A stretch of DNA of 64,000 nt, from assembly GCA_963826825.1 (NCBI GenBank), contig CAWGYV010000005.1:10948-74947 (forward strand), given 5' to 3'. The stretch is from an uncultured Acidimicrobiia bacterium (GTDB lineage Bacteria > Actinomycetota > Acidimicrobiia > Spongiisociales > DATADW01). Position 1 is the first letter of the stretch, and each line of letters opens with the position of its first letter. A model generated the notes under the pieces. It was not told the origin of the DNA, searched no databases, and saw nothing but the letters and a program-made list of their open reading frames with translations. A program made the position numbers and the translations under genes. Shown here one piece after another: positions 9,121 through 58,984 of this stretch.

Positions 9121-9160
9121 AGAAAGACGGAAGACGGAAGACGGAAGACGGCAGGCAGAG
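9121..9160 (+). repeat. tandem heptamer array, GACGGNN family (AGACGGA x3, AGACGGC, AGGCAGA)
   Basis: Read directly. It starts 5 nt after the tRNA-Leu 3' end. Confidence 0.95.
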
Positions 9161-9273
9161 GACCGGCGAGCGGGCACTCCGGGGAGTGGTTTCCGCAAGT
9201 CGATTGGGTGGGGTAATGTCGTTGGCGAGCAACGGCCATCTACCAGACCGAATCGACAACGTCCTGCCGCATC

Positions 9274-9292
9274 CCCCCACTCCCCCACTCCC
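9274..9292 (+). repeat. C-run octamer repeat CCCCCACT x2 plus CCC
   Basis: Read directly in the tRNA-Leu / trpA intergenic gap. Confidence 0.9.
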
Positions 9293-9372
9293 TGGCTGGG
9301 CGTTTCGGAATCTTGGTGGATGGCCGTGGCTCGTTTTTCGGTCTTCTTGAGACCCGACTCCCTGGGCACCGC

Positions 9373-9400
9373 CCCACCTGGCGCAAGTGACGCCAGTGGG
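9373..9400 (-). terminator. stem-loop directly after the trpA stop (no U-tract)
   Basis: CCCACCTGGCG-CAAGTGA-CGCCAGTGGG forms a roughly 10-bp stem with one bulge. It starts 1 nt beyond the trpA stop codon (9402-9404). Confidence 0.35.
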
Positions 9401-9401
9401 C

Positions 9402-10218
9402 TCAGATTGCCCAGGCAGCTGCCCAGAACAGTCCGTCCAGCGCAGCACGGAATTCGCCGACGGCGGTGGTCAACCGCTCGATGGCGTCGTCGGTGTTCTC
9501 CGATTCGAGGACGAGACGGACCAGAGCCGAACCGACGATGACCCCGTCTGCGTACGTCGCGACCGCTGCCGCCTGACTCGGGTGTCGAGATGCCGACGCC
9601 GAAGCACCAAGGGCACATCGGTGATCTCCCGCACCCGGCTCGATAGGTCGGCGACATGGCTGCTCACTTCGGACCGCTCCCCGGTCACCCCGAGGTCGGC
9701 CACCCCGTAGATGAAGAGTGGCCGTGCCGCCGCCACGCGACGGAGACGCTCGTCACCCGTGGTGGGTGCGACGAACTGGACCATGCCGAGCGCGTGGCGG
9801 GCGGCGGCAGACGCCACCTCGTCGGACTCCTCGAGCGGAAGGTCGGGGACGATCAACCCATCGGCGCCCGCTTCGGCGAGACGCCGGCAGAACTCTTCCG
9901 CTCCCATCCGGAGGACCGGGTTGGCGTAGGTCATCGCCAATAGTGGGCGACCGGTGGTCCTCGGCGACTCTCTCGATCGTCTCGAATGCCACCCGCAGCG
10001 ACGTGCCCGCCGCCAGTGCGGCCTCGCTCCCCCGTTGGATGACCGGCCCGTCCATCAACGGGTCCGAGTAGGGGATCCCCACCTCGAAGCCGTCTGCGCC
10101 GGCTTCGGCCATGGCGGCAAAGAGGCGCGGCGACGAATCGGGGTCGGGTAGCCCGGCCGTCATGAACGGGAAGAAAGGCGGTGTGGCCCGGTTCGAACAA
10201 CTCCGCGACCCGGTTCAC
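9402..10218 (-). CDS. trpA: tryptophan synthase alpha chain, at least four frame changes
   Basis: [18 protein letters not shown] is in ORF 9753..10163. [11 protein letters not shown]...VAPTT is in ORF 9470..9940. Own translation recovers [27 protein letters not shown]...AAAWAI-stop at 9402. The GTG start overlaps the trpB stop (GTGA, 10215-10218). Confidence 0.85.
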
Positions 10219-11393
10219 TGCAGCTTGGCCTCGATCTGGTGGACGTCCTTGTCACCGCGACCCGACAGGCAGACGAGCACGGTCCGCCCGGCGAGCGACT
10301 CCTTCTCGCGTGCGAGCCATGCGATGGCGTGGGCCGACTCCAGAGCCGGGATGATGCCCTCGGTCCTGGCGAGGAGACTCAACCCCTCGAGCGCCTCGTC
10401 GTCGGTGACCGAGTCGTAGCGGGCCAACCCGGCGTCGCGCAGATAGGCGTGCTCCGGGCCAACTCCCGGGTAGTCGAGCCCGGCCGATATCGAGTGCGCC
10501 TCGAGCACCTGGCCATCGGCGTCCTGGAGCATCAGGGTCCACGTCCCATGGAGCACCCCGGGCGACCCGGCTCCGATCGATGCGCCGTGACGACCGCTCT
10601 CGATCCCCTCCCCGGCGGCTTCCACCCCGACCAGGTCGGCGGCTCCTCCCAGGAACGGGTGGAAGATCCCGATGGCGTTCGATCCGCCGCCGACGCAGGC
10701 CACCACCACGTCGGGCGTCTCGCCGTCGAGTTGGGCGATGCACTCCTCGCCGATCACCTTCTGGAACTCGCGGACCATCCAGGGGTAGGGGTGCGGGCCG
10801 ACCACCGACCCGATCACATAGTGGGTGTCCTCGACCGTGGCCACCCAAGCCCGCAAAGCCTCGCTCACTGCGTCCTTCAACGTCCCGGCACCACTGGCCA
10901 CCGGGACGACCTCTGCCCCGAGCAGCCGCATCCGCACCACGTTGAGCTCCTGGCGCTCGATGTCCACTTCGCCCATGTACACGGTGCAATCGAGGCCCAT
11001 GGCGGCGGCTGCCGTGGCAGTGGCCACCCCGTGCTGGCCGGCCCCGGTCTCCGCTATCACCCTGGGCTTTCCCATCCGGACAGCCAGAAGGCACTGACCG
11101 ATGGCGTTGTTGATCTTGTGCGCCCCGGTGTGCGCCAGGTCCTCCCTCTTGAGCAGGACACGCATCCCGAGCTCGGCGGAGATCCGTCGCGCCTCGTAGA
11201 GCGGTGTGGGCCGGCCGGCGAACCCGGCCAGCCATGTCTGGTACTCGGTGACGAACCGGGGGTCGGACCATGCATCGGCGAACGCCGACTCCAACTCGGC
11301 CAACGCCGGCATCAGAGTCTCTGGGGCGAACCGCCCGCCGTAGTCGCCAAACCGCCCATCTCCGTCCGGACGGTCGAGCGGAGCCGGGATCAC
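10215..11393 (-). CDS. trpB: tryptophan synthase beta chain
   Basis: Uninterrupted 392-aa ORF with the [19 protein letters not shown]-lysine block and GGGSNAIG. Confidence 0.97.
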
Positions 11394-11996
11394 GATCGAG
11401 CCGCCTTGGCCCGCTCGACGTATCTGCGGACTAGCTCTGCGTCTTTCACGCCCGGAGCCGTTTCGAGCCCGCTCGATGCGTCGACACCGAATGGGCGGAC
11501 CTCGGCGACTGCATCGGCGACGTTCTCGGGACCAAGCCCGCCGGCGAGGACGAAGTCACGGTGCTGGTCTCCGATGGAGCTCCAGTCGAAGGTCAGACCC
11601 GAACCACCGTGGAGCCCGGGCGCGGCGTTGTCGAGCAGCGGGATCTGACCCGATGGGACGGTGTCCAGGTCCACGGCGCCGTTGATCCGCACCGGCCAGA
11701 GGACCCGGAGGCCGCCTTGCTGCGCCATCTGCGCCGCCGCGGCTGCGTGGCGACCGTATGGCTGGACCCCGTCGGCCCCGGTCTGCTCGACCGCCTCGAT
11801 CAGCTCATTTGGCGACATGCCGACCGTCACCAGGATCTTCGCCACCGGGATACCCGTGCCGAGACTGCGCGCCTGCTCGATCGTGACCCGGCGCGGCGAT
11901 ACCGCGAGCACGAAGCCGATGGCGTCGGCTCCTGCCTGCACTGCGACCTCGGCGATCGCGCCGGTCGGAGACCCCGCAGACCTTGACCCATGTCAC
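11390..11996 (-). CDS. trpF: phosphoribosylanthranilate isomerase (one frame change near 11965)
   Basis: [10 protein letters not shown] (tail of ORF 11805..12800) joins [26 protein letters not shown]... (ORF 11390..11941). The GTG start overlaps the trpC stop (GTGA). Confidence 0.8.
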
Positions 11997-12800
11997 AGCC
12001 GGGCGGCTCCTTGCCGGACGGCAGCGTCTCCCGTTTCTGCGGCTATGAGCCGCGCCACGGCCGCCGCCGGGTCGGTTGCGCGCACCAGGCTCTCGCCCAC
12101 CAAAACGGCGTCGTAACCCGACGCAATCATCCGTGTCACGTCGGCGGGTCCGGTGATCCCGCTCTCCGCAACGCGGTCCTTCGAACCCTTCGAGCCGACG
12201 AGCCAGTCGTTCGGCGATGCTCAGATCGAGATCGAAGGTGGACAGATCCCGAGCGTTGACGCCGACGAGACTGGCGCCGGCGGCGCGGGCCCTTTCCGCT
12301 TCCACCTCGTCGTGGATCTCTACCAGCGTCTCGATTCCGGCCTCTGTCGCGGTGGCTATCAGCCTGGCCAGCATGTGATCCTCGAGGGCGGCGACGATCA
12401 GCAGGACGGCATCGGCGCCGATCGCCCGACTCTCCCAGATCTGCGCCGGGTCGAGTACGAAGTCCTTGCGGAGCACAGGGACGTTCACCGCCGCCGCGGC
12501 AGCTCTGAGATCGGCGATGCTCCCGCCGAAGAACTCCGGTTCGGTGAGGACCGAGATGGCCGCCGCACCGCCCGACTGGTACGCCGCGGCGAGGACCGCC
12601 GGGTCGAGGTCAGGTGCCAGCACGCCCCGCGACGGTGAGCGCCGCTTGACCTCGGCGATCACCCGGGCACCGGGTGCGGTGACCGCCGCCGTCAGCGAAC
12701 GCACCGGCGGAGACCGGAGCGCCGCACTGCGGAGCTCTGCCGATCGAGCCGCCAGATCGGGAATTCGACGGCGGACGGTTGCGATGATCTGGTCGAGCAT
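11993..12800 (-). CDS. trpC: indole-3-glycerol phosphate synthase (one frame change near 12190)
   Basis: ORF 11805..12800 gives VIAEVKRRSPSRG, ISVLTEPEFFGGS and LRKDFV. Own translation of the shifted tail gives KDRVAESGITGPADVTRMIASGYDAVLVGESLV with a stop at 11993. Confidence 0.9.
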
Positions 12801-20676: not shown

Positions 20677-20685
20677 AATGGGAGC

Positions 20686-20712
20686 AGTACTTAGTACTTG
20701 GTACTTAGTACC
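20686..20712. repeat. tandem heptamer array, AGTACTW family (AGTACTT x2, GGTACTT, AGTACC)
   Basis: Read directly. It is an AT-rich island between two convergent stop codons (20676 and 20728). Confidence 0.95.
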
Positions 20713-20727
20713 TGGACTGGTAGTCGC

Positions 20728-21012
20728 TCAAGGGGAGGTCACCGCCGCTCGTTGCTCCCGGTCCATCCGGCGCGCCATCCGGAGCAGGATGCGGACCGTC
20801 GCCACCAAGGCGAAGAGCACACCGACGAGGATCAGCCCGAACTCGGGGCCGGCGGTCAAACCGGTGGCGCAAGCGGCGATCCCATCGGGGCACATGCCAA
20901 ACCCGCTCCCGCCGCCGGACAGGTCGATGAGGACGAGTAGCGGGATAGCCGCCACCGCCATGATGGCGAGCAGCAAGACCCCGATCAGCACCCGGATCCA
21001 AGTCACAGACAC
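20728..21012 (-). CDS. small two-TM membrane protein, hypothetical
   Basis: 94-aa ORF with two hydrophobic helices and G/C-rich third codon positions. The overlapping plus-strand reading (start of ORF 20678..22723) is S/T/R/P-rich and looks off-frame. Confidence 0.5.
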   Translation of the reverse strand: MSVTWIRVLIGVLLLAIMAVAAIPLLVLIDLSGGGSGFGMCPDGIAACATGLTAGPEFGLILVGVLFALVATVRILLRMARRMDREQRAAVTSP

Positions 21013-21061
21013 GAAACGAAAGGCTACCTGGGCTCAGGTTCCCCTAGGTACGATCCCGGCG

Positions 21062-22676
21062 GTGCAGGCCTACGTCGAGCCATTCACCGACGACGAAGTG
21101 GCCGTTCTATCCCGGTTCTTCACCAACGTCGATCAGCCCGTCTTCGCCCTGATGAATCTGCCCGAGGTGGTCAAGGGGGCCCTCTTCGCCCGCTACAGCC
21201 GGAGCGCCAAATCGCTCCGCCGGCTGTTCCTCGACGAGTTCGTCGCCGACCCCGAGGCCGGGATCGAGACTCTCGTCGGCGGAGCTGAGCCAGGACTTGA
21301 CATCGACCGTGCGGAGCGGCTCTACCAGCGGGTGTTCGTCGAGTACGGCGACGACTCGGTGGCGCAGTTGGGTGGTGCCCACCTGGCGGTCGAGCAGGGG
21401 TCGAACCTGCTCACCAAGGCGCTGGAGTGGGGCCGGCTGGCCGCATACCTCGAGCAGAGCACCCGGTATATCCCGTACGACACCAGGCTCGGCGACCGGC
21501 ACCGCTACGTGGTGCCGCCCGAGATCGAAGAATCTCCGCTTCGGCGACGCTACGTCTCCTGGGTCGCCTCGCTGTTCGATGCCTACGGCGAGATGCTGGG
21601 CGGGATGAAGGAGCACTACGAGAGACGGTTCCCGTTGCCTGAGGGTGAGTCACCCCGGCCGTGGGCCGCGTCGCTCCGAGCAAAGGCGTTCGATGCGGTC
21701 CGGGGGGTGCTTCCGGCAGCAACCTCGTCCAATGTTGGTGTATTCGCCAGCGGGCAGGCATGGGAGATGGCGCTCGTCAGGATGCGCGCCCACCCACTGG
21801 CCGAGGTCCGCCAGTGCGCCGACGCCATGCTGGTCGAGCTTCGCAGGGTGATCCCGTCGTTCCTTCGCCGGGTGGACGTACCCGACCGAGGCGATGAATG
21901 GACGACCTATCTGGCCGATGTTCGGGAGCGGCTCGAGGACATCGCAGCCGGCCTCAGCGGGCCCGACCCGCAGCCTGGGCCAAGCGTGTCACTGATCGAC
22001 TGGGACGAGGACGCCGAGACCAAGGTCGCCGCGGCAGCCCTTTACCCGGGAAGCAATCTCGCCGATAAAGACGTGCTCGAAGCGGTGGCCGCCATGAGCG
22101 AGGGCGAGCGGGCGCAGATCCTGGCGGCAGCCGTCGGCGACCGCCGCAACCGGAGACACAAACCGGGACGAGCCTTCGAGCGGGCCGTCTACCGGTTCGA
22201 TGTGGTCTGTGACTTCGGCGCATTCCGCGACCTGCAACGCCATCGGATGATGACCATCGAATGGCAGCGGCTCGGCGCCAGGCTTGGCCACGACACTCCG
22301 CCCGATATCCTTGAGGCGGGGATGGAGGGATTGTGGAGTGGGGTGATGGAGAATGCTTGTGAGATCCACCATGAGGTCGAGACCGACGTTGGGCGACGAT
22401 GTCGCCCAGTACGTGCTGCCTCTCGCCTTCAACATCAGGTTCGTTATGGAAATGAACGCACGCCAGGCGATGCACCTCATCGAGCTCCGCTCGCAGCCGG
22501 CCGGACACCGCACCTACCGACAGGTGGCGCTCGAGATGCACCGCGCCATCGGAGAGGTTGCCGGTCACCGGCTCATCGCCGATGCGATGAGGTACGTCGA
22601 CAGCTCCGACGTGGGGTTGGAGAGGCTCGAAGGGGAACGACGCGCCGAGCAGCGGCGCCACGCTCTTGGAGCGTGA
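21062..22676 (+). CDS. two-domain ThyX-like FAD-dependent thymidylate synthase family protein (one frame change near 22360)
   Basis: KGALFARYSRS is in the first half and FRDLQRHRMMT in the second (ORF 20678..22723). The tail LPLAFNIRFVMEMNARQAMHLIELRSQPAGH is in ORF 22353..22676. The GTG start at 21062 is my choice. Confidence 0.7.
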
Positions 22677-24003
22677 TGTGGCCTTCCCCGAGTCTTCGCC
22701 TGACCTCGACCCAGGAGAGCTGAGCACCCCTCCTCCCGGGCTGAAGCGGACGACGCTGGCCTTCATCGATCCGGTCATCGAACGCAGCTATCAGCTTGTC
22801 GCCGGTGCCGCCAATACCCGCGACCTGGTCATCGGATTCCTGCTCGGAACCGGTCTCTGGGTGTTCGGAGCATGGATCGTCGACGCCAATACCCCGATCA
22901 AGCCGGGGCCGCTCCTGATCATCTGCGGTGGGATGGTCCTCGTCAACATCGTCGGGCTGATCGCAGTGCGCCGCGCCCGGACGCTCGACCAGCAGCAGTG
23001 GCTGGCCGGCGGTGTCAACAGCCTCAGCGGGATCGCCCTTCTCCTGCTCGCCGAGCAGGCGCTCTATTTCGGACGGCTGGCGGTGCCCGCGGTGATGCTG
23101 GCCGCTTTGTTTGCCTTCGTAGCGCTCCGGCTCCGTTTCGTTGCCGCCGCTGCTGCCGTCCTCCCCTACCTCGCCCTCTACATCGTCCTGGCGATCGACA
23201 CCTTTGCCGAATTCCGCGGGCTCGATTTCTTCCTGGTCGGATCCGCGGTGGTCGCCTCGATCGTCGGCGCGTACACCCTTGAGATCGCCCAACGGCGGGT
23301 CTTCGCCCAGCAGCGCACGATCGCGGTGCAGAAGGCGGAGATCGAGCTGGAACGAGCCAAGTCGGACCGACTTCTCCTCGCGGTCCTCCCTCCTTCCATT
23401 GCCCAGCGGCTGCGCGATAACCCCGGCGTCATCGCCGATCGAGCCGAGGAAGTGACAGTCATCTTCGCCGACCTGGTCAACTTCACCCCATTGGCCGAGC
23501 AGATAGCGCCTGAGGAGGTGGTCGATCTGCTCGACTCGGTCTTCTCACAATTCGACGACCGCACAGTGGAGCTCGGGTTGGAGAAGATCAAGACCATGGG
23601 CGACGCCTACATGGCGGCCGGCGGGCTCCCAGAGCCGCTCGAGGACCATGCGGTCAGGGCTATCAGGCTCGGCTTCACGATGCTCGAGGTCGTGGAGAAA
23701 GAGGCGGTCAAGCGCTCGCTCCCGCTGGCATTGCGCGTCGGGATCCACACCGGAACCGTCGTTGCCGGTGTGATCGGCAAGCAGCGGTTCTCGTACGACC
23801 TATGGGGTGACGCGGTCAACATCGCCAGCCGGATGGAGTCGCACGGTGTGCCCGGGGCCATCCAGGTGAGCGAGGCGACCAAAGAGCTCGTCGAGGTGGA
23901 GTTCCCCTGTCTGCTCCACAAGGAACTCGAGGTGAAGGGCCACGGGACCATGGGCGTCTACATCGTCCAGCCCCCCTTCGAGATCGAAGAACCGCCCCGC
24001 TGA
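22666..24003 (+). CDS. membrane-anchored class III adenylate/guanylate cyclase
   Basis: Uninterrupted 445-aa ORF. A multi-TM N-domain is followed by VTVIFADLVNFTPL, KIKTMGDAYMAAGGLP, RVGIHTGTVVAGVIG and YDLWGDAVNIASRMES. Confidence 0.9.
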   Translation: MERDVAFPESSPDLDPGELSTPPPGLKRTTLAFIDPVIERSYQLVAGAANTRDLVIGFLLGTGLWVFGAWIVDANTPIKPGPLLIICGGMVLVNIVGLIAVRRARTLDQQQWLAGGVNSLSGIALLLLAEQALYFGRLAVPAVMLAALFAFVALRLRFVAAAAAVLPYLALYIVLAIDTFAEFRGLDFFLVGSAVVASIVGAYTLEIAQRRVFAQQRTIAVQKAEIELERAKSDRLLLAVLPPSIAQRLRDNPGVIADRAEEVTVIFADLVNFTPLAEQIAPEEVVDLLDSVFSQFDDRTVELGLEKIKTMGDAYMAAGGLPEPLEDHAVRAIRLGFTMLEVVEKEAVKRSLPLALRVGIHTGTVVAGVIGKQRFSYDLWGDAVNIASRMESHGVPGAIQVSEATKELVEVEFPCLLHKELEVKGHGTMGVYIVQPPFEIEEPPR

Positions 24004-24278: not shown

Positions 24279-24310
24279 AGACGGAAGTCGGAAGACGGAA
24301 GACGAAAGGA
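24279..24310 (+). repeat. tandem heptamer array, GACGGNN family (AGACGGA, AGTCGGA, AGACGGA, AGACGAA)
   Basis: Read directly. Confidence 0.95.
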
Positions 24311-24330: not shown

Positions 24331-24358
24331 CCGTCCGCCGTCCGCCGTCCGCCGTCCC
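24331..24358 (-). repeat. tandem heptamer array, GACGGCG family on the opposite strand (CCGTCCG x3, CCGTCCC)
   Basis: Read directly. It ends 1 nt before the TTG start of the ArsA-like gene. Confidence 0.95.
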
Positions 24359-27201: not shown

Positions 27202-27231
27202 AGCACCGTTGGGAGTTAGGCAGCCCCCCTA

Positions 27232-27250
27232 CCCGCTGCTCCGCAGCGGG
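27232..27250 (+). terminator. hairpin CCCGCTGC-TCC-GCAGCGGG, 30 nt after the HAD hydrolase stop
   Basis: Read directly. 8-bp GC stem, no U-tract. Same core as the hairpins at 19518 and 34309. Confidence 0.4.
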
Positions 27251-27309
27251 CCCTTCCCCCCTGCGGGGGGACGGAGAGAAAGTGCGCCCTTCCCCGCCGG
27301 GGGACGGAG
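27250..27309 (+). repeat. two direct copies of a C-run/G-run hairpin module (GCCCTTCCCC..GGGGGACGGAG)
   Basis: GCCCTTCCCCCCTGCGGGGGGACGGAG at 27250-27276 and GCCCTTCCCCGCCGGGGGACGGAG at 27286-27309. Confidence 0.9.
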
Positions 27310-27335
27310 GGGTGGGCTCGTCCTCCTTCCTCTGG

Positions 27336-27377
27336 CGTCCGCCGTCTGCCGTCCGCCGTCTGCCGTCTGCCGTCTCT
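27336..27377 (-). repeat. tandem heptamer array, GACGGNN family on the minus strand (CGTCCGC/CGTCTGC, six units)
   Basis: Read directly. The last unit abuts the dnaE stop codon (27377-27379). Confidence 0.95.
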
Positions 27378-30300
27378 CAGACAATCGCTCCGGAGCCGAA
27401 GAGTTCGCGGAGTTCGGCGTAGAGGGCGCTGCGGGGCTCGACGCGGTGTTCGTCACCCAGCTTGAGCACCTTGTGGTTGCCGTTTCCCACCATGTGGAGG
27501 AACACCGGAGAGGCTACCGGGGTGGTTGCCGAGGATCTCCTTGAGCCGTCCGACCGCCCGCGGTGAGAGGGCCGCTGCTGGAGATCTTCGAGCCGGACCT
27601 CGTCGGCGCCACGGACCTCGAGTTCCTTGATCTCCCGTGCGACGACCTTGATGTCGTCGCCGCGGTGGTCGAGACGACCGCTGACCACGACGATCGCACC
27701 CTCGCGGATGACACCGAGGGCCTCGGCGGCGACCTTGGGGAAGGCCACCACCTCGACCGAACCCTCCAGGTCCTCACATTGGAAGAAGAGCATCGCTTCG
27801 CCGTTCCGGGTGAACCGCCGGTTTATGGCACCGACCATCCCCCCGATGGTGACAGGAGGCCCCGTCAGGCTGCTCCCACAACTCGGGCACGCCCGAACTG
27901 GATACCCGACGGAGCGAGGTCGTCACGCCGAGGAGGGGATGGTCGGAGACGTACAGACCGAGCATCTCCCTCTCGAAGGCGAGCTTGACCTTCTGGTCCC
28001 ACTCACCCTCGGGCAGCGCCAGCACCACCTCCCCCACCTCCTGGGGCATCGCCGCCGAAGAGGGTGTACTGGCCCATCTCCTCGTTGCGGCGGCGCACCA
28101 ACGTCGCCTCGAGCCACTGCTCGTATACGAGGATCAGCGACCGTCTCGAATGACCCATCCCGTCGAAGGCGCCCGCCTTGATCAGCGATTCGATGGTGCG
28201 CTTGTTGAGGACCATCGGGTCTACCCGGTCGATGAAGTCCTGGAAGTGGGCGAACGGCTCGCCGGAGGTGCGTTCCTCGATGATCCGCTCGACCACCCCC
28301 TCGCCGACGTTGCGGACCGCAGACAGCCCGAACCGGATATCGCCCCTCGTACACCGAGAAGTCCATCTGCGACGTGTTGACGTCGGGGGTGAGGACCTGC
28401 ACACCCATGGCGCGGCACTCGTTGAGGTACACCGCCGTCCGGTCCTTGTCCCTCTTGGTGGCGGTGAGCATCGCCGCCATGTACTCGGCGGGGTAGTGCG
28501 CCTTGAGCCACGCCGTCTGGTATGCGATGAGCCCGTAACAGGCGGCATGGGCCAGGTTGAACCCGTAACCGGCGAAGTGCTCGATCAGCGCGAACAGTTG
28601 TCTCGCCCAGCGCCTCGCTGTGACCCCTCGCCGTGCAGCCGGCGACGAACTTCTCCTCCTCGGCGCGCATCACCGCCGGGATCTTCTTGCCCATGGCGCG
28701 GCGCAGGTTCTCCGCCTCTGCCATCGAGTAGCCCGCCATGACCTCGGCCACCTGGAGCACCTGCTCCTGGTACACCATGATCCCGTAGCTGCGCTCCAGG
28801 ATCGGCGCCATGTCGGGGTGGAGGACCTCGACGGCCGCCCGGCCGTTCTTGCGGTCGGCGTAGAGAGTGTGCATCCCGGCTCTCATCGGGCCTGGTCGGT
28901 AGAGCGCCACCAGGGCGATGACGTCCTCGAACCGGTCGGGTGCCAGGTTTCGGATCAACCCGCGCATCGCCGAGCCTTCCAGTTGGAAGACGCCGATCGT
29001 CTGAGCGGAGCGGAGCAGCTCGAAGGTGATCTCGTCGTCCAGCGGCACGTTGTCGATGTCGACCATCGGGCGGCCTGCTGGCGCCGCCGACTCGGCGGAC
29101 CCAGACTCGGCGGACGACGCCTCGATCAACTCGAGCGTCCTCTCCATGATCGAGAGGTTCCTCAACCCGAGGAAGTCCATCTTGAGCAGACCGAGGTCCT
29201 CGATGGCGTGCATCTCGTACTGGGTCACGACCTCGGCGCCGTCCCCCTTCTGCTGGATCGGGATGTGCTCGGTCAGTGGGACCGGTGAGATGACGACGGC
29301 GGCGGCGTGGATCGAGTCCTGGCGGCGCAGGCCCTCGAGATTGCGCGCCACGTCGGCCACGCTCCGGATGTCCGGATCGGTGGCGTACGCCTCGCGAAGA
29401 CCGGAGGCGTTGGCGTGCCAGTCCTTTGTGTTCCCGTCGGCGTCCTCGGGAAGGGGATCGAGGCACATGCCCAATGCCGCGTCCCGCCCAAGGATCGGAG
29501 GTGGCATGAGCTTGGCGGCCCGGTCACCCACACCGTACGGGTAGCCGAGGACACGGGCGGCGTCGCGCAGCGCCTGCTTCCCCTTGATGGTGGAGAAGGT
29601 GACGATCTGGGCGACGTGGTCCGATCCGTACTTCTCGGCGGCATAGCGGATGACGTCGGCTCTGTAGCGCTCGTCGAAGTCCATGTCGATGTCGGGAAGC
29701 TGGCGCCGCCCCGGGTTGAGGAAGCGCTCGAAGACGAGCCCGTAGCGCAGCGGGTCGAGGTCGGTGATCCTCAGGCAGTAGGCACACGATCGAGGCGGCG
29801 GAGCTCCCCCGGCCCGGCCCGATCCTGATCTTGCGCTCCCGGGCGTGGCTGATCAGGTCCCACACGATCAGGAAGTAGGCGGGGAAACCCATGCTCTCGA
29901 TCATGGAGAGCTCGTGTTCGATCCTCGTGGTGACCTCATCTGGCAGCGGGTCGCCGTAGCGCTGCACCGCGCCGCTCATCACCAACTGGCGGAGGTAGGT
30001 CGCCTCGGTGTGACCAGGAGGAACGGAGAACTGGGGCAGCAGGATCCTGCCGAACTCGAGGTCGACCGTTGCCCGCTCCGCCACCAGCAGCGTGTTGTCG
30101 CATGCACCGGGGTACTGATCGGAGGGGAAGATGCGCCTCATCTCCGCAGCCGACTTGAGATAGAACTCCTTGGCGTCGAAGCGGAACCGGTTGGGCTCGT
30201 CGCGGGTGGCACCGGTCTGGATGCAGAGCAGGACGTCGTGGGTCTCTGCCTCGTCCCGCCGCGTGTAATGGGCGTCGTTGGCGGCGAGAAGCGGTGCCCC

Positions 30301-30939
30301 GATACGCCGGGAGATGTCCACGAGGTCGGGGAGGATGCGGCGCTGCGGTTCCAACCCGTGGTCCTGGATCTCGATGAAGAAGTTGTCTTTTCCAAAGATG
30401 TCCTGGTAGTGGGCGGCCGCCGCCACCGCGGCATCGACATCGCGCACCGCCTCGGCTATGCCTTCCTCCCGCGACGCATCGGGGGCGAGGTGCTGCGCCA
30501 CCGGGCCACCCAGGCAGCCTGAGGTGGCGATGATCCCCTCCGAGTGCTCGGCGAGCAGCTCGGAGTCCATCCGGGGCTTGTAGTAGTACCCCTCGAGGTA
30601 GGCGCGGCTGGCCAGCTTCATCAGGTTGCGATAGCCAACCTCGCTCGCCGCCAGCAGCGTCATGTGGTACCGGATGTTCTGGCTGCGTACCGGTCGATCG
30701 AACCGGGAGCCCGGGGTGACATATGCCTCGATCCCGATCAACGGCTTTATGCCCTCTTCCCGGGCCGCCTTGACGAAGTCGACGACCCCGTACATCACAC
30801 CGTGATCGGTGATGGCGACCGCAGGCTGGCGGTCGGCGGCGGCGGCGGCGACCACCTCGCCGACCCGGGCCGCCCCGTCGAGCATGGAGAACTCGGTGTG
30901 GAGATGCAGATGGACGAAGGAGTCGCTCGCCGCCACCAC
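27377..30939 (-). CDS. dnaE: DNA polymerase III alpha subunit, at least six frame changes
   Basis: PHP N-terminus FVHLHLHTEFSMLDGA is in ORF 29524..30939. Ordered fragments follow in ORFs 28221..29684, 28003..28548, 27923..28480 and 27774..28049. The OB-fold tail is in ORF 27377..27838. Confidence 0.95.
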
Positions 30940-30942
30940 CGA

Positions 30943-31878
30943 TCAGCCCCGCTCTGAACTACACGCTTGGGATTCGCACCTTAGCCTGGAAAGCTGTCCG
31001 GGGGCGAGAGCGCGAAACCGGCTGGCGTCAGCCGAGAGGGTGACCAGGAGCACGGTGATGACCCCCACGGCGGCGGCAACGCCGACCCGCCTTGCCGGGT
31101 CCCTGGCCACCGTCGGCGACGACCAGAGAGCGCCGATTAGGACCCCCGCTAGCAGCCCGCCGAGATGCCCCTGCCAGGAGATGTTCTGCGAAGGTGAAGC
31201 CGAGTACCGCGTTGATCCCGAGCAGCACCAACAGCTGGGTGAGCTGGGCGCGCCCGACCGGTGTGGCGCGGGCCCGAAAGGCGTTCCACAACCAGACGCC
31301 GAAAAGCCCGAAGATTGCACCCGATGCTCCCGACCAGTACGTCGAAAGGGCCACCAAGGAAGAAGGCGGCGGCGCCGCCGGCAGCCGCCGAGCTGAGGTA
31401 GAGCGCGGCGAAGGCCGGACTGCCCACCCGCCGCTCCAGTTGCGGGCCAAAGATGTAAAGGGCCCACATGTTGAAAAGGATGTGATAGAAGCTCCGGGCG
31501 TGGAGGAAGGCGGCGGTGAACAGCCTCCACCACTCCCCCTGCGCCACAAGCTCAGTTGCTCTGGGCGAACGTCACGAACAGGTTCTCGTAGATCGTCGGA
31601 AGCAGCAGACTCGTCAGGAAGAACAGCACCGAGATCCCGATGAAGGTGAAGGTGACCGGCGCCGTTCTGGTCGTGGGCCTCGCCCAGCTTCGCCTGGCTT
31701 CGACCACCCGGTAGCGACCTTCCGGCTGGGCGCACTCGGGGCACTTCTGCCCCACCGCAGCGTCGACGCTGCACTCCACGCAGATCGGCTTGCCGCAGTT
31801 GGCGCAGGAGAGCCGGGTGAGCCGGTTGGGATGTCGGTAGCAGACGGGTGTCGCCCGCGAGACGGGCTCAGTGGTCAC
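30943..31878 (-). CDS. rhomboid-family intramembrane serine protease with N-terminal zinc-ribbon (several frame changes)
   Basis: CYRHPNRLTRLSCANCGKPICVEC is in ORF 31552..32001. WWRLFTAAFLHARSFYHILFNMWALYIFG is in 31149..31547. Catalytic GASGAIFGL is in 31028..31774 and QGHLGGLLAG in 30943..31533. I chose the GTG at 31878 so the gene does not run through the heptamer arrays. Confidence 0.8.
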
Positions 31879-31908: not shown

Positions 31909-31948
31909 TAGACGGCGGACGGCGGACGGCGGACGGCAGACGGCAGAG
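31909..31948 (+). repeat. tandem heptamer array, GACGGNN family (GACGGCG x3, GACGGCA x2, degenerate end)
   Basis: Read directly. It lies in the divergent gap between the rhomboid gene and pfk. Confidence 0.95.
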
Positions 31949-31994: not shown

Positions 31995-32022
31995 TACCCA
32001 CAACCCACTACTCCATCTACCC
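31995..32022 (-). repeat. degenerate heptamer array, GTAGTGG/GTGGGTW family on the minus strand (TACCCAC AACCCAC TACTCCA TCTACCC)
   Basis: Read directly. It is the reverse complement of the array type at 34328. Confidence 0.8.
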
Positions 32023-40154: not shown

Positions 40155-40223
40155 CGGGTGCCTCCCGCGGTCGGTCGTCGGAGGTTAACCCTGGTCGGGT
40201 CCCCAACCCTGGGATTGCTCAGT

Positions 40224-40245
40224 GTTAGCCCGTGGGGGGGACGAC
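40224..40245 (+). repeat. copy 1 of direct repeat GTTAGCCCGTGGGGGGGACGAC; its G7 run pairs with a following C7 run
   Basis: Read directly. G7 40234-40240, ACGA, C7 40245-40251, TACA, then a second C7 at 40256-40262. A CGCCGGC/GCCGGCG stem follows at 40262-40288. Confidence 0.9.
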
Positions 40246-40321
40246 CCCCCCTACACCCCCCCGCCGGCCCGCAGTCCGCTCGCCGGCGCTTGGAAGGTGC
40301 TGGCGCGTCCGGTTGATCACC

Positions 40322-40342
40322 GTTAGCCCGTGGGGGGACGAC
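40322..40342 (+). repeat. copy 2 of direct repeat GTTAGCCCGTGGGGGGACGAC (one G fewer)
   Basis: Read directly, 98 nt downstream of copy 1. Confidence 0.9.
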
Positions 40343-40354
40343 GGTCCGCGGTCT

Positions 40355-40389
40355 AAGTACTAAGTACTAAGTACTGAGTACTAAGTACT
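40355..40389. repeat. tandem heptamer array, AGTACTW family (AAGTACT x3, GAGTACT, AAGTACT)
   Basis: Read directly. Confidence 0.95.
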
Positions 40390-40413
40390 GCGAGCGCTGC
40401 GAGCGAAGCGAGC
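40390..40413. repeat. 9-nt tandem repeat GCGAGCGCT GCGAGCGAA GCGAGC
   Basis: Read directly. It ends 2 nt before the yggT stop codon (40416-18). Confidence 0.9.
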
Positions 40414-52086: not shown

Positions 52087-53600
52087 CGACCCACCCCCGC
52101 CGGGTGACGCGGCGCTTCTTCTTGCCGCGGGTACCCGAGTGCTCCAAGTTCCTCGGCGGCCACCTGAAGGTCATCGAAAGGATGGACCACGCCGGCGAGG
52201 TCCTGTCCGGTCTCGTGCCCTTTGCCCAGGATGAGAATGGCATCGCCTGGCCCGGCGGTGGCCAGGGCGTGGCGAATGGCCAGCCGTCGATCCGGCTCCA
52301 CTACCCAACCGGCTTGATCGTCCACGCCCCGAAGAACCTCGGCGATGATCGCCCCGGGGTCCTCGGAGCGTGGGTTGTCCGAGGTGAGCGACGACGCGGT
52401 CGGCTGACGATGCCGCCTGACCCATCAAAGGGCGTTTTGCCCGGTCACGGTCACCGCCCGCCCCGAACACGACGACGACCGCACCATCGGTGAGCCCTCG
52501 AGCAGCCGTCACCGCCTCCTCGATGCTCGCCGGGGTGTGGGCGTAGTCGACCACGACCTCGAATGGCTGGCCGTAGAGCACCCGCTCGAACCGGCCGGGG
52601 ATCACCGGGCAAGCCGCCAACCCGGTGGCGATCGGCATCGAGATCGATGTCGAGTTGGAGAGCGATCGCCGCCGCTATCAGAGCGTTGGCGAGGTTGAAG
52701 CGGCCCCGAAGAGGGAGAGCGACTTCTCTGTTCCCGGTCGGAGTCACCAGGGTGAACTCGATCCCCTCCCACGTCGGACTCGACACGTTCGGCGTGGACC
52801 TCACCGGTGCCGGCACCTACCTCGACGACGGGAAGCGCCGTCGACTCCGCAAGACGGGCACCCGCCGGGTCGTCGATCCAAATGACGCCGCAGCGGGCCC
52901 GCCCTGGTTCGAAGAGGCGCGCCTTGGCTTGGAAGTAGCTCTCCATGTCGCCGTGGAAGTCGAGGTGATCCTGGCTCAGGTTGGTAAACGCCACCACCTC
53001 GAACCGAGTGCCCTCCACCCTGCCCAGAGCCAGCGCATGCGAAGAGACCTCGAGGGCGGAGACCTCGACCCCGGCGTCGACCATCTCGGCAAGGAGACGC
53101 TGCAGGTCGTCGGCCTCGGGAGTCGTCCTCTCCAGCTTGACCGGCCGGCCCGTGATCCAGGCACCCGTCGTCCCGATGATCCCGCTCCGCCTTCCCGCGG
53201 CGTTGACGATCGCATCGAGCAGATAGGTCACAGTTGTCTTGCCGTTTGTTCCGGTCACCCCGACCACCCGCAGTCTCTCCGAGGGGTTGCCGGCTACCGC
53301 CGCCGCCAGTGGCCCCAGAACGGCGCGCCCCGACGTGACCATTAGCTGTGGCGTCTGTACCGGGAGCAGGCGCTCAACGGCCACCGCCACTGCCCCACCG
53401 GCGGCGGCGGCATCGGCGAATGCGTGCCCGTCGCTGCTGAACCCGGGGATGGCGACGAACAACGAGCCGGTGGTTGCCGAACGGCTGTCGTGGACTATCG
53501 AGGTGATCACCGGGTCGTCGTCGTCGCCAGTTTCGGCAGGGACCACGGTGCCCCCGACGAGCGCGGCGAGCGCCGAGAGAGGCATCGGGTCAATCCCCAT
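52083..53600 (-). CDS. murE: UDP-N-acetylmuramoyl-L-alanyl-D-glutamate--2,6-diaminopimelate ligase (at least three frame changes)
   Basis: VGVTGTNGKTTVTYLL, TTPEADDLQRLL and EVSSHAL are in ORF 52602..53600. Own translation recovers LTSDNPRSEDP (the DNPR motif of DAP-adding MurE) near 52340-52375. Confidence 0.9.
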
Positions 53601-55421
53601 CGCTGGCTCCCATCGCTGGTCCCATCGCTGGTCCCATTGCTGGGAACTCCCAGGTGGTGTAGCGCCTTCTCCATCACATCGGCGAAGACGGGCGCCGCAG
53701 AGAGCCCACCTGAGCGGAAGGCGTACGAAGGTCCCTCGACGACCACCGCGACCACCAACTCCGGGTCGTCGGCTGGGGCCATGCCGACAAAGCTGGCCAC
53801 GTTCACCTGCCTGTTGTAGCCCGTGTCCTCGAGCTGCTCGGACGTCCCCGTCTTCCCGGCCACCGTGTAACCGGGGATTGCGGCGCGGAGACCGGTGCCG
53901 TGCTCGACCACCTGCTGCAGCATGCGGCGCATGGTCTTCGCCGTTGCCTCGGAGACGACGCGGCGCCGTTCCGGGCGGACCTTGGTCGGTGCGCCGTCAC
54001 CCGACACCACTTGGTCGACGAGATGCGGCGCTACCCAGACCCCGTCGTTGGCTACGGCGCCGTATGCGGCCGCCATCTGGAGCGGCGACACCGAGACCGA
54101 GTAGCCGATCGATGCGGATGCGGTGCACGATCCGCAGGTTGGATCGACGTTGACCGACCCGGCGGCCTCACCGGCGTACTCGATACCGGTCGGCTCGCCC
54201 AACCCGAACCGCTCGAGGAAGCGGCGCAAGCGCGACGTGCCCACCCGCTCTCCGACCAGGATCGTGCCGACGTTGGAGGAGCGGGTGACGATCTCCTCGA
54301 CGGTCATGTCCTCGGGTTCGTGGTAGTCGGGGTCGCCGTAGCACCCGAAGATGATCGTCGGTGCGGCTATCACAGGCACCGTCGACCACCTCGTAGCGAG
54401 CGGGGACGTCGGGTATGACTGAGGTCGGCTTCAACAGGCCATCCTCGAGGGCAGCAGCGATGGTGATGGTTTTCAGCGTCGATCCGGGCTCAAAGGTGCC
54501 CCGGATGGCAAAGTTCCCAAACAGCGTCTCGTCCGACACCCCCTGGCGGTCGTTGGGGTCGAAGTCGGGCAGGGTCGCCAACGCCACCACCGCCCCGTCG
54601 TCCGGATCGAGCACCACCACCGTGCACCTCTGCGCCTCGGCGTCGGTCAGGATCTCCGAGCAGGCGCGCTCGGCGGCGAACTGGACGTCGAGGTCGATTG
54701 TGGTGACCAGGTCGTCACCAGGGTCGGCGGGCTCCACCTGGTAGCGGCCCTGGGGAATGATCCGTCCGGAAGGGTCGGTCTCGACGATGGCGGCACCAGG
54801 CTTCCCCCTGAGGACGTCGTCGAAGCGGTACTCCAGCCCCTCTTTGCCCTCGTTGTCGATGTCGACCCATCCGAGGATGTGGCTGGCGAGGGCACCGGCC
54901 GGGTAGACCCGCTTCGGCTCGGGGAGCGTGTAGATCCCAGCGAGGTCAAGCGCTTGCACCTCCTCCGCCTGATCGAACTCGAGTTGTCGGGCCAGGTAGA
55001 CGAAGGTCGAGTCCTCGCGTAGACGGTCCAAGATCACCGAGGTCGGGCGGTCGAGCACCGCCCCGAGCAGCCGGGCGGCTACATCGGGGCTCTCCACCTG
55101 CTTAGGGTTGGCGTAGATGGTGGTCCCGTCGATGGTCACCGCCATCTCGCGGCCGCGGGTGTCGAAGATCGACCCGCGACGCGCCGCCAGCTCTTTCCGG
55201 GTCAGCCTCTGTTCCAACGACTCCGCAGCCCACCGGTCGGACTCGATGACCTGCACGTAGAAGAGCCGGGCGCCGGCACCCAGCCAGGCGACGAACAGCA
55301 GACCCCCGACCGCGAAGAGACGTGCGTCGGACAGCCCGAGTCGCCGGCCCTTGTTACGGCCGGCCACGGTCACTCCTCCAGCTGGCGACCGCCGGGTGGT
55401 CGGAAGGGTCGCTCCGCCCAC
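53590..55421 (-). CDS. ftsI: penicillin-binding protein FtsI/PbpB (class B transpeptidase), at least two frame changes
   Basis: The N-terminal TM and dimerisation domain are in ORF 54168..55421. The transpeptidase part, with VAGKTGTSE, is in ORF 53507..54379. If the 13-nt repeat unit is really 12 nt, the protein ends ...SDGD-stop at 53590-53592, overlapping murE by 11 nt. Confidence 0.85.
53596..53644 (-). repeat. 12-nt tandem repeat (CCCATCGCTGGT-type, four units, first unit 13 nt) at the ftsI 3' end / murE 5' end
   Basis: Read directly. It encodes an (S/T)SDG-type repeat tail of the PBP and contains the murE ATG (53598-53600). Confidence 0.9.
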
Positions 55422-56845: not shown

Positions 56846-56846
56846 G

Positions 56847-56926: not shown

Positions 56927-56976
56927 GATGAACCAGGTTCACCGCCGCCGGTCGCTCGGTGTCGGCTCCACCTCCC

Positions 56977-57381: not shown

Positions 57382-57428
57382 GTTGTATCTGCTCCGTCCT
57401 GCATACCGCTGATCCTCCGTCGAGTCGC

Positions 57429-57457
57429 AATCTGCCCCATATCGACCCACCTGTCAA
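57429..57457 (-). promoter_or_regulatory. candidate dcw (mraZ) promoter: TTGACA - 17 nt - CAGATT
   Basis: On the minus strand, TTGACA lies at 57457-57452 and CAGATT at 57434-57429, about 48 nt upstream of the mraZ GTG. The -10 match is weak. Confidence 0.4.
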
Positions 57458-57511
57458 CACTTTTTCGCCTTTTTCTCCCACAACGACCCACCGGCCAGTC
57501 AGGCGACCCAC
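57444..57511 (-). promoter_or_regulatory. GTGGG(TCG) direct repeats, candidate MraZ operator
   Basis: On the plus strand, CGACCCAC occurs three times (57443-50, 57484-91, 57504-11) and CTCCCAC once (57475-81). CCCAC starts at 57446, 57477, 57487 and 57507, i.e. spacings of 31, 10 and 20 nt. Confidence 0.5.
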
Positions 57512-57536
57512 TCCCCTCCCCCGGTAGGGTTGCCGC

Positions 57537-58838
57537 GTGGCCCCTCTCCTCCCCGACGTGCCACTCCCCCACCTCGCCTCGTGGCAGGAACAGGGGGGCG
57601 GGATCGCCCTCGCCGAGGCCCGACGATCTAGGGCCGGATGGTGTCGTCGCCGAGATCCGCGCCTCGGGGCTGCGGGGCAGGGGTGGTGCCGGGTTCCCCA
57701 CGGCGCTCAAGTGGGGTGGGATCCTCGAGGAGGCGCCGGCGCGCTGCTACGTGGCTTGCAATGCCGCCGAGGGCGAGCCGGGGACCTTCAAGGACCGGGC
57801 CCTGATACGGGCGAACCCCTACCAGTTGCTCGAAGGGCTGGCCGTGGCCGCCGAGACCATCGGTGCCACCGAGGCCTACGTCGCGATCAAGAGCCCGTTT
57901 CCGGCCCGAGATCGAGCGGCTCGAGACAGGCGGCGACCGAGATGGCGCCTGCCGGTCTCCTCGGCGATGTGCCGATCCGGATCGTCGAGGGGCCGGACGA
58001 CTACCTGTTCGGCGAGGAGAAGGGCCTCCTCGAGGTGATCGAGGGAAACGATCCGCTACCCCGCCTGGTGCCTCCGTACATCGAGGGGCTCGTTCGCCGA
58101 TCAGGCACTCCGCCGGCCCGGCGGTGGTCAACAACGTCGAGACGCTGAGCAACATCCCACGGATCCTGCGAGAGGGCGCCGAGCGCCTTCCGGAGCGAGG
58201 GGACACCCCAGAGCCCGGGGACAATGGTGTTCACCATCTCGGGAGCGGTGCGCCGGGAGGCGGTGGCTGAGTTACCCCTCGGCGCCCCCCTCTCCTATCT
58301 CGTGTACGGGCCCGGCGAGGGGTTGGAGGCGGGACGGAGAGCCAAGGCGGTGATCTCGGGAGCCTCGAACGCCCCACTCGGCGCCGGCCAACTCGACACG
58401 CCGCTCTCCTACGAGGGCATGGCGGCGGCCGGGTCGGGGCTGGGCGCAGGTGGCCTGATCGTCTACGACGACACCGACTGCATGGTCAGGGTCGGCGCCG
58501 TCCTCTCCACCTTTCTCGCCAGGTCGTCGTGCGGTCAGTGCCCTCCGTGCAAGCTGGGGACGACCGCGATCGCCGAGAAGCTGTGGAGCCTCGAGCAGGG
58601 CGAGGGCACCACCGAGATGATCGAGGAGATCGCAGCCTGGGTCGGTCAGGTCACCGACGCCAACCGCTGCGGTCTCGGCCTGGGCGAGCGGGTGCTGACC
58701 GCCGGGCTGCTCGAGCGGTTCTGGGACGAGGTCGAGGCCCACCTCATCGGAGAGTGCCCGCTCCCCGGCGAGACGATCCTGCCGATGATCGAGGACTGGG
58801 ATCAGGAGGCGGGCGGTTCGTGTACGGTGAGTACTTAG
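57537..58838 (+). CDS. NuoF-like (complex I 51-kDa subunit family) NAD(H)/FMN/4Fe-4S protein, at least four frame changes
   Basis: SGLRGRGGAGFPTALKW and CNAAEGEPGTFKDR are in ORFs 57537..58148 and 57751..58038. LFGEEKGLLEVIEG is in the first. SSCGQCPPCKLG...ANRCGLG is in ORF 58224..58838. No other nuo genes are nearby. Confidence 0.65.
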
Positions 58839-58857
58839 TACTTAGTACTAGTACTAG
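58830..58857. repeat. heptamer/hexamer array, AGTACTW family (AGTACTT x2, AGTACT x2, AG); contains the NuoF-like stop codon
   Basis: Read directly. The TAG stop at 58836-58838 lies inside the array. Confidence 0.95.
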
Positions 58858-58950
58858 ACCGGAAGGTGCCGCCAGCCGGGTACTCGTCCGTTGTGCAGAC
58901 CGACGGATCCTGCCGAACTGCTCGTTCCGGCGCATCGAACGTGCTAGTCC

Positions 58951-58984
58951 GTACTAAGTACTGGTACTGAGTACTTAGTACTAG
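58951..58984. repeat. heptamer array, AGTACTW family (GTACTAA GTACTG GTACTGA GTACTTA GTACTAG), inverted partner of 58830-58857
   Basis: Read directly. GTACTAAGTACT (58951-62) is the exact complement of AGTACTTAGTAC (58830-41). It ends 5 nt before the HNH gene stop. Confidence 0.95.

Follow-up and report, generated by a model that had tools for sequence, protein, structure and literature searches.

What generates tandem seven-base repeats between the genes of a bacterium, and what allows them to stay there? What makes bacteria accumulate units of seven bases in particular, and whether such repeats have any role, has been a standing question since the short tandemly repeated repetitive (STRR) sequences of cyanobacteria were described, and it is raised again by a 64-kb stretch of DNA from an uncultured member of the Acidimicrobiia (GenBank assembly GCA_963826825.1, contig CAWGYV010000005.1, positions 10,948 to 74,947; hereafter the window, numbered from its first nucleotide). 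A preliminary description of the window, made by inspection, reported eleven tandem heptanucleotide arrays of three unit families in its intergenic gaps. We lean towards reading these arrays as heptanucleotide microsatellites of the STRR or long simple sequence repeat (SSR) class, generated by slippage and filtered by selection on transcripts, most of them being tolerated passengers of gene boundaries. The analysis drew on 64 kb of the source genome and on pieces of about 20 kb from its relatives. A dnaE fragment identifies the host as an uncultured member of the Acidimicrobiia, and the nearest genomes are metagenome-assembled genomes (MAGs) of the same class.

Reality and extent of the arrays

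Arrays were detected with Tandem Repeats Finder (TRF) over the whole window, and chance was controlled for with 40 dinucleotide-preserving shuffles, counting rows with at least 3 copies and a TRF score of at least 40. The real window gave 11 period-7 rows and each of the 40 shuffles gave 0, which excludes a chance origin. The enrichment is confined to period 7, every other period yielding at most one row. Ten of the eleven arrays first seen by eye were recovered by TRF at the same coordinates (Table 1); the eleventh, at 31995-32022, escapes TRF in the window because its units are degenerate, and its orthologues in relatives are clear ACCCAYW arrays. The arrays recur in independent short-read contigs (L001, L215-L217; relatives are denoted here by contig labels) and in long-read contigs (L081-L086), and an assembly artefact is thereby ruled out.

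A sliding coding-potential map assigns about 8% of the window (4.7 kb) to non-coding DNA, in keeping with its characterisation as almost entirely coding, and this small share holds every array. All eight loci lie in or at non-coding segments (0.08^8, about 2e-9), and no array falls inside a gene. The preliminary description was slightly generous in giving arrays to most of the longer gaps, since about half of the gaps of at least 100 bp carry one; the intergenic location itself stands. It was right about the contacts with stop codons, namely those of dnaE (27377-27379), an rluD-like gene (34363-34365) and a NuoF-like gene (TAG, 58836-58838), and about the two loci in divergent gaps (24279/24331 and 31910/31995; arrays are named by their first nucleotide). 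To these we add a contact that it had passed over: array 9124 begins 7 nt past the 3' end of tRNA-Leu(CAA). Arrays that abut or supply stop codons also carry a warning for annotation, as gene callers extend open reading frames (ORFs) through them.

The division into three families holds, with the units better defined as GACGGYR, GGGTNNT (of which GTAGTGG is one variant) and AGTACTR than as originally given. Within the 64 kb, GACGGYR occurs at five loci, AGTACTR at four and GGGTNNT at two. GACGGYR units contain neither G-tracts nor stop triplets, GGGTNNT is a G3N4-type unit, and AGTACTR is palindromic in its core, almost all of its units containing a stop triplet. AGTACTR arrays close one to three of the three frames per strand, both strands being fully closed only at 40353, and the GTAGTGG array closes three frames on one strand; because GACGG arrays close no frame, an 'all-frame stop' device is rejected as a general property. 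Restriction-site avoidance is likewise rejected, AGTACT occurring five times outside arrays, which is about the composition expectation by our own estimate.

Inheritance and turnover among relatives

Syntenic contigs of relatives were retrieved with phosphofructokinase (PFK), TrpB and MoxR anchors and compared over the PFK region, where nucleotide identity to the window is 94.7% for L081, 85-87.5% for L082-L086 and about 76% for L212; L084 and L085 are 98.3% identical to each other, and L085 and L086 99.4%. Arrays occupy the same gaps in relatives at 85% nucleotide identity or above (L081-L086, L001, L213-L215). The array at the dnaE stop is found in all six syntenic relatives, called by TRF in five (3.3-9.4 copies) and present as about three uncalled units in L081, and the 31910 array is found in all seven (about 2 to 8 copies). 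An array follows tRNA-Leu in 3/3 relatives (L213-L215) and lies near yggT in 5/6, and the 31995 site carries clear arrays (x4-5) in L082-L086 and L001. Orthologues of the 34328 array have 3.4-4.4 copies in L084-L086 and are degenerate, with GG tracts only, in L081-L083; the 20686 array is present in L215, degenerate in L213 and absent from L214.

Copy number, unit sequence and sometimes the family differ between relatives, even at 98-99% identity. The dnaE gap holds 9.4 units in L084 and 6.4 in both L085 and L086, at 98.3% identity, a difference of 21 nt or three units that bears out the earlier suggestion of variable copy number between genomes. The PFK2/rluD gap shows a one-unit difference between relatives, and the rhomboid/PFK gap ranges from 2 to 8 units, both of its arrays being kept while the spacer between them is no longer alignable across species. 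Units also drift, from CGTCTGC to CGTCCAT and from GTAGTGG to GTTATGG, GGTTCTG or AACCCAA. In the cyclase/ArsA gap, the AGACGGA/CCGTCCG pair of the window corresponds to GGTTCTG/CTCACAA in L083. The NuoF/HNH gap is filled by AGTACTR-93 nt-AGTACTR in the window and by CGGAAGG x5.1 in L216/L217, and is an array-free gap of about 10 nt in L218, which is about 95% identical to the window yet without the block.

The array habit belongs to one clade of about genus rank. In the sister lineage L212, whose PFK has 80% amino-acid identity to that of the window, the syntenic 21 kb has compact gaps and no period-7 array above threshold, with one weak TRF row (73% matches, score 31). Since L212 has the same genes in array-free gaps, the flanking genes do not need the arrays. 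Acidimicrobiia loci at 70% dnaE identity or below have essentially no period-7 arrays.

The long-read assemblies, the window included, contain many single-base indels and frameshifts, so small array differences between them are unreliable; whole-unit differences and short-read contigs are unaffected. Many long housekeeping genes of the window are split into overlapping ORFs in different frames, among them dnaE (27377-30939, in four pieces), ileS (36205-39142), polA (6007-8636) and the NuoF-like gene (57537-58838). Long-read relatives from the same ENA assemblies are split likewise at other positions, and genes are intact in the short-read relatives L215 and L216; the split ORFs look like long-read indel errors rather than pseudogenes.

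Polarity and inverted pairs

The arrays are polar with respect to their neighbouring genes. In 11 of the 11 informative arrays of the clade, drawn from seven independent gaps, reading in the sense of the gene gives the G- or purine-rich sequence downstream of a stop codon or tRNA and the C-rich sequence ahead of a start codon. Beyond the clade, a metagenome scan with (GACGGNN)x4 as query returned contigs of G+C 0.38-0.76 on which 183 period-7 arrays were counted, with a great variety of units. Arrays of this kind occur widely, and they frequently form inverted pairs led by the G-rich arm: the metagenome loci include 50 adjacent pairs within 200 nt, half of which (25) are inverted complements, and the G-rich array comes first in 26 pairs and the C-rich array in 3 (p = 1.5e-5), a measure that is independent of strand. 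The G-first order is seen in co-directional, convergent and divergent gaps, as judged by crude gene calls, and clean examples in L145 and L105 show a co-directional gap reading stop, G-array, spacer, C-array, start. Applied to the metagenome loci, a nearest-gene polarity test reached no more than marginal significance (Fisher p = 0.05) because the gene calls there are noisy, with those based on G+C at third codon positions putting 28 arrays 'inside ORFs'. Our conclusions on polarity rest on curated calls for the clade and on the pair-order test. Among 86 unselected arrays the commonest length is 4.x units; as the TRF threshold removes the low end, this is no ground for claiming that four units are preferred.

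Two further groups of contigs came to light alongside these loci. L089 (IMG/VR IMGVR_UViG_3300047160_011294), a predicted viral contig with a G+C of 0.62, carries 13 period-7 arrays in 14 kb (2349-12270), one of them consisting of 15 copies of TTTCCGC, and its pairs are opposite in polarity, with the C-rich array first. The Omnitrophota MAG contigs L075 and L073, which are distant dnaE matches, gave 9 and 4 period-7 TRF rows of unrelated AT-rich units; Omnitrophota is an independent lineage with the same array habit.

RNA folding and sequence signals

Terminator or RNA-stability elements had been put forward as candidate roles for the arrays. Folding, scored as a z-score against shuffled sequence, makes this plausible for AGTACTR alone. 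The AGTACTR stretch at 40345-40395 has a folding energy of -22.2 kcal/mol and z-scores of -4.8 (+ strand) and -2.9 (- strand), and at 58828-58977 the arms of the 58830/58951 pair form a stem of about 20 bp round their spacer (-63.4 kcal/mol, z = -4.1). The gaps with GACGG and GGGT arrays fold no better than shuffles or worse (z from -0.8 to +1.8), and for these unstructured arrays the suggestion is not plausible. The AGTACTR hairpins lack a U-tract. A scan of positions 20-40 kb of the window for hairpin and U-tract terminators found 8 consensus matches, none in an array gap and equal in number to those in shuffles; the array gaps of that stretch thus hold no stem-loop with a T-run of the canonical intrinsic kind. 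A promoter scan gave no match in array gaps, and an Rfam search of the gaps, at the gathering threshold and at E <= 1, returned no family, tRNA alone being matched.

The 34328 array contains four GGG tracts and so a G-quadruplex motif; its orthologues in L081-L086 have 0-3 tracts, and GACGG and AGTACT arrays have no GGG tracts. G-quadruplex formation is rejected as a general explanation because G-tracts are limited to one family and are not conserved in relatives.

Comparison with known heptanucleotide repeats

Tandem 7-nt units that are over-represented in non-coding DNA are known from Xanthomonas (GGGAATC) and Nostoc (GGGGAYT), where the coding strand is the G-rich one in the 50 bp that follow stops, and the non-coding strand in the 50 bp that precede starts (Rehm et al. 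2015, PMC4692102). The present arrays share with these heptamers the polarity rule, a mode of about four units, housekeeping neighbours and the lack of an established function (PMC4692102), and the four GGG tracts of the GTAGTGG array recall their G-rich units. Unlike them, the arrays of the window belong to another phylum and have other units, of which one family in three is G3N4-type and the dominant GACGG lacks G-tracts. The window has an AT-rich, palindromic family besides, and two of its array loci lie in divergent gaps, which are under-represented in Rehm et al. (PMC4692102).

The likeness to cyanobacterial STRR sequences, which the preliminary description had drawn, is borne out in that a few tandem heptanucleotide families are dispersed in the intergenic DNA of one lineage, and neither set of repeats has an established function. 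In the strict sense the arrays are not STRR sequences, those being a feature of heterocystous cyanobacteria whereas the host here is an acidimicrobiian and the clade distribution is narrow, at about genus level. The units of the window are taken to be unrelated to those of STRR1-3.

The arrays show each feature of heptanucleotide long SSRs, in that they are tandem beyond chance, non-coding, confined to a few dispersed families and variable by whole units of copy number. Mrazek, Guo and Shah (2007), as cited in PMC4679880, found heptanucleotides to be the most abundant class of long SSRs (5-11 nt), listed three Actinobacteria among the ten richest genomes and proposed polymerase slippage as the cause; as cited there and in PMC4692102, long SSRs were enriched in non-pathogens with high G+C. 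The novelty that the preliminary description saw for an Actinomycetota-like genome therefore falls at phylum level, Actinobacteria being among the richest genomes (via PMC4679880), and holds at the level of this clade. The 2007 survey, as relayed in these papers, concerned the cultured genomes of its year and gave no unit families, polarity or pairing for Acidimicrobiia, and we found no literature description of such arrays for that class.

TAACTGA repeats occur in 2-6 copies near start codons in marine Beggiatoaceae, cyanobacteria and Bacteroidetes (MacGregor 2015, PMC4679880). They too are intergenic heptamers with a sporadic phylogenetic distribution and a binding-protein hypothesis attached to them (PMC4679880). 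They differ in being a single unit placed a few nucleotides upstream of starts, whereas here several families are found, more of them at 3' ends, with the 5' ones 22-70 nt off. The one heptamer array with a demonstrated mechanism is the (ATCTTTC)n repeat in the 5' untranslated region of Haemophilus influenzae hmw1/hmw2, which forms an arm of an RNase III-cut hairpin with a G-rich partner and has a hypervariable copy number (PMC12721329). It is likewise a 7-nt tandem array, lying in a transcribed untranslated region, and is unlike the present arrays in needing at least 11 copies, serving phase-variable adhesins, placing the pyrimidine arm first and being of one locus type per genome (PMC12721329). 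The (GATAGRA)n satellites of Chloroflexus aurantiacus and the 6-8 nt microsatellites of Burkholderia (PMC6749651) resemble ours as species-specific, intergenic families scattered through a genome, although they were found as longer satellites, without analysis of polarity or orthologous gaps (PMC6749651).

The phenomenon, its polarity and the lack of an established function are thus already in the literature, and the Acidimicrobiia case is new. Its value is comparative: phylogenetic onset is sharp, orthologous arrays can be traced from one species to the next, and gain, loss and replacement are all seen at a single gap. With arrays common gap by gap at 85-95% identity and none at about 76%, the clade forms a natural comparison, in which MAGs and metatranscriptomes could show whether the habit set in together with gains or losses of genes for polymerases, repair factors, RNases or binding proteins. 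Whether the polarity rule and the G-first inverted pairs stem from a role at transcript ends could be tested in the same way.

Origin and persistence of the arrays

In the account that we favour, slipped-strand mispairing would create the arrays and change their length in whole 7-nt (or 14- or 21-nt) steps, and would keep each array internally uniform while the adjacent spacer decays. Selection at the level of the transcript would then act as a filter. Arrays would persist only outside reading frames, and only in the orientation that the transcript tolerates, with a G- or purine-rich sense strand after a stop or tRNA and a C-rich sense strand before a start; most of them would therefore be tolerated passengers and not needed parts. 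AGTACTR would be the exception, its palindromic core allowing RNA of either strand to fold at single arrays and at the 58830/58951 pair, and these arrays probably serve as 3'-end hairpins, predicted to be terminator-like, protective or a target of RNase III.

Several observations weigh against this account. Pure local slippage leaves unexplained why GACGG, AGTACT and GGGT cores recur at unlinked gaps, and the presence of the same cores at many such gaps suggests dispersal, gene conversion or selection for the motif. Arrays that outlast the unalignable spacers between them could equally reflect selection for the arrays. Slippage does not account for a period of 7 rather than 5 or 8. Finally, the arrays often pair in a fixed order of arms (26 pairs to 3), a hint that the pair may function as a whole.

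Those last counts also speak for an unlikely alternative, in which the arrays are selected RNA boundary elements that slippage merely tunes. Read-through RNA of a G-first pair, in which the G-rich arm is 5' on either strand, would fold into a long hairpin that either ends transcription in both directions without a U-tract or insulates neighbouring genes as a target of RNase III, and single G-rich arrays after stops would pause transcription or stabilise 3' ends. The pairs and inverted complements of the metagenome loci fit this proposal, as do the inverted pair 24279/24331 and the self-complementary, well-folded pair 58830/58951 of the window, the L083 pair in which both arms switched family together (GGTTCTG with CTCACAA), and array gaps that hold no canonical hairpin and U-tract terminator. 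A pyrimidine-rich 3' arm in RNA makes a weaker RNA:DNA hybrid, which would favour release of the transcript. There is a precedent in the hmw repeat, one arm of an RNase III-cut RNA hairpin (PMC12721329). Against this, most arrays in the window are single, the 24279/24331 pair folds no better than shuffles (z = -0.8 and -0.7), and gaps with GACGG and GGGT arrays have less structure than their shuffled counterparts. The genes of L212 lack arrays altogether, and those of the NuoF/HNH gap are missing from L218 at about 95% identity; the G-quadruplex potential of 34328 is not conserved, the metagenome gene calls are crude and the nearest-gene test is marginal. A related proposal, which we consider somewhat less likely still, is that fixed-polarity inverted pairs bracketing intergenic spacers form a distinct and so far unformalised class of gene-boundary element in many uncultured lineages, this clade included; slippage would tune the length of their stems, and single arrays would be half-elements or decayed pairs. 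The widespread G-first inverted pairs, for which the evidence is counts, are the most interesting lead to emerge here.

It is improbable, in our estimation, that the arrays are sites for a clade-specific protein, whether one binding single-stranded RNA or DNA or a nucleoid protein, which reads a 5-nt core at 7-nt spacing and whose gain in the array-bearing clade would have driven the spread of a few unit families. Cores with two variable positions do recur at unlinked loci in the window (GACGG+NN at five, AGTACT+R at four), and the habit appears abruptly in one clade, being present at 85% nucleotide identity or above and absent at about 76%. Binders such as S1, Csp and CsrA-like proteins have been proposed for TAACTGA repeats (PMC4679880), and an unidentified partner in Nostoc (bioRxiv 10.1101/2022.06.06.494920). 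However, no candidate protein has been identified here, and a single genome has three unrelated cores, with more in relatives (GGTTCTG, CGTCCAT, AACCCAA, CGGAAGG). A different family can fill the same gap in close relatives, and the supposed core is common outside arrays, GACGG occurring 144 times and CCGTC 177 times.

Array pairs might instead be the ends of non-autonomous elements, akin to miniature inverted-repeat transposable elements, that insert as an array-spacer-array unit. The block at 58830-58984, present in the window and missing from the same gap in L218, has the look of such an insertion, and the cyclase/ArsA gap of L083 has a replaced flank along with its different array pair; transposition has been suggested for dispersed heptamer-derived satellites (PMC6749651). 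We nonetheless hold this to be very improbable. By blastn over the window and the partial sequences of relatives, neither the 93-nt core nor any other spacer occurs a second time, two pairs in L145 share arms but have unrelated spacers, no clean target-site duplication marks the window/L218 junction, and most arrays are single. Twenty nucleotides of the spacer (58917-58936) match moxR about 1.2 kb downstream (60099-60118) in the same orientation (blastn E 1.6e-4); the match is exact in the moxR of L216/L217 (L216 10287-10306) and has two mismatches to the moxR of the window itself.

That the arrays are contingency loci, switching or tuning the expression of neighbours by copy number as in H. 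influenzae hmw, is scarcely credible. Copy number does differ between near-identical genomes, and some arrays lie 22-70 nt upstream of start codons. The flanking genes are nonetheless housekeeping genes (dnaE, PFK, tRNA-Leu, thyX, yggT, rluD) and not surface or variable functions, which makes the role unlikely; many arrays lie at 3' ends, the 3-9 copies here compare with at least 11 needed in hmw, and for the heptamers of Xanthomonas and Nostoc, too, Rehm et al. decided against such a role (PMC4692102). Two further candidates are set aside, since the units are contiguous 7-mers without spacers, unlike the repeats of about 24-48 nt with unique spacers of similar length in a CRISPR array, and since the heptameric repeats of Streptomyces antibiotic regulatory proteins, as outlined in PMC5930380, are spaced at 11 nt beside the -10 element in promoters of pathway genes, where the period here is 7 and many arrays are at 3' ends.

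Features of the window

Table 1. Arrays and associated features of the window, with their immediate setting.
Feature	Position	Strand	Basis	Setting
tRNA-Leu(CAA)	9033-9117	+	ARAGORN; Rfam tRNA, 63 bits	
GACGG array, AAGACGG x4.0 (9124-9151), then degenerate units	9124-9159	+	TRF	tRNA trailer purine-rich in its sense strand
AGTACTR array, AGTACTT x3.7	20686-20712 (TRF 20686-20711)	none assigned	TRF, Pfam	Co-directional gap of about 48 nt from EamA stop (20676) to thyX
GACGG array, AGACGGA x4.3	24279-24310 (TRF 24279-24308)	+	TRF	Left arm of imperfect inverted pair in divergent gap; 55 nt upstream of a 72-aa minus-strand gene
GACGG array, other strand, CCGTCCG x3.9	24331-24358 (TRF 24331-24357)	-	TRF	Right arm; C-rich on the coding strand of an ArsA-like gene (Pfam ArsA_ATPase), about 22 nt ahead of its probable GTG start at 24380 (relatives' gene calls)
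GACGG array, TCTGCCG x6.4, CGTCCGC/CGTCTGC alternating	27331-27377 (TRF 27331-27375)	-	TRF	Adjoins dnaE stop; G-rich strand is the dnaE sense strand; 14-nt super-period
GACGG array, GACGGCG/GACGGCA (TRF AGACGGC x5.4)	31910-31947	+	TRF; alignment with L001	31 nt upstream of rhomboid GTG start (31876-31878, minus strand); C-rich in rhomboid sense
Degenerate GGGTNNT array, ACCCAYW on + strand	31995-32022	-	Not TRF-called in window	69 nt upstream of PFK start (32091); C-rich in PFK sense
GC hairpin GCCGCTGC-TTC-GCAGCGGC	34309-34327	none assigned	RNA fold	Between second PFK stop and array 34328
GGGTNNT array, GTAGTGG x4.4	34328-34362 (TRF 34328-34358)	+	TRF; G-tract count	Fills convergent gap up to rluD-like stop at 34363
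AGTACTR array, CTAAGTA x5.3	40353-40389	none assigned	TRF	27 nt downstream of yggT stop (40416, minus strand)
AGTACTR array x3.9, left arm of pair	58830-58857 (TRF 58830-58855)	none assigned	TRF, sequence, ORF list	Supplies the TAG stop of the NuoF-like ORF; pair lies between NuoF-like and HNH genes
GC-rich spacer, 93 nt	58858-58950	none assigned	blastn, fold	Between two AGTACTR arrays
AGTACTR array x4.7, right arm of pair	58951-58984 (TRF 58951-58982)	none assigned	TRF, RNA fold	

In RNA of either strand the sequence at 34309-34327 folds into a hairpin with a stem of 8 bp (minus strand, z = -4.3), and the hairpin motif recurs in the gap at 27202-27330. That gap, together with 40215-40352 in the window and 4960-5323 in L083, holds a second intergenic repeat family that often adjoins heptamer arrays. 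Its parts are GC hairpins, GCCGCTGC..GCAGCGGC and C6-TGC-G6 followed by ACGGAGAGAAAG, and a CACCGTTGGGAGTT / CACCGTTAGCCCGTGGGGGG motif; in L083 the family is tandemly multiplied three to four times, and it resembles repetitive extragenic palindromic sequences.

Beside the 40353 array, just downstream of the yggT stop, lies a 9-nt tandem repeat, CTGCGAGCG x2.9 (40388-40413), and the sequence GCGAGCGAAGCGAGCC is conserved in all relatives. In the same gap about 60 nt upstream of a DivIVA-like gene on the minus strand (40155-40215) are conserved in 7/7 relatives, the rest of the gap not being conserved; this stretch, which has no Rfam match, may be a 5' untranslated region element.

Among the neighbouring genes, the thyX frame (20678-22723) encodes 598-681 aa with two Thy1 matches, and gene calls in relatives give 423-647 aa. 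With ThyX normally about 250 aa long, the frame may represent a duplication or a fusion of the protein. A tandem pair of phosphofructokinase genes (32091-34305) is common to all relatives; the first PFK ORF has 488 aa in the window and 386-394 aa in relatives, the greater length in the window being probably due to a frameshift. The strongest repeat of a period other than 7 in the window is a 12-nt tandem repeat, CCCATCGCTGGT x3.9 (53596-53643, TRF score 80), which is probably an in-frame coding repeat.

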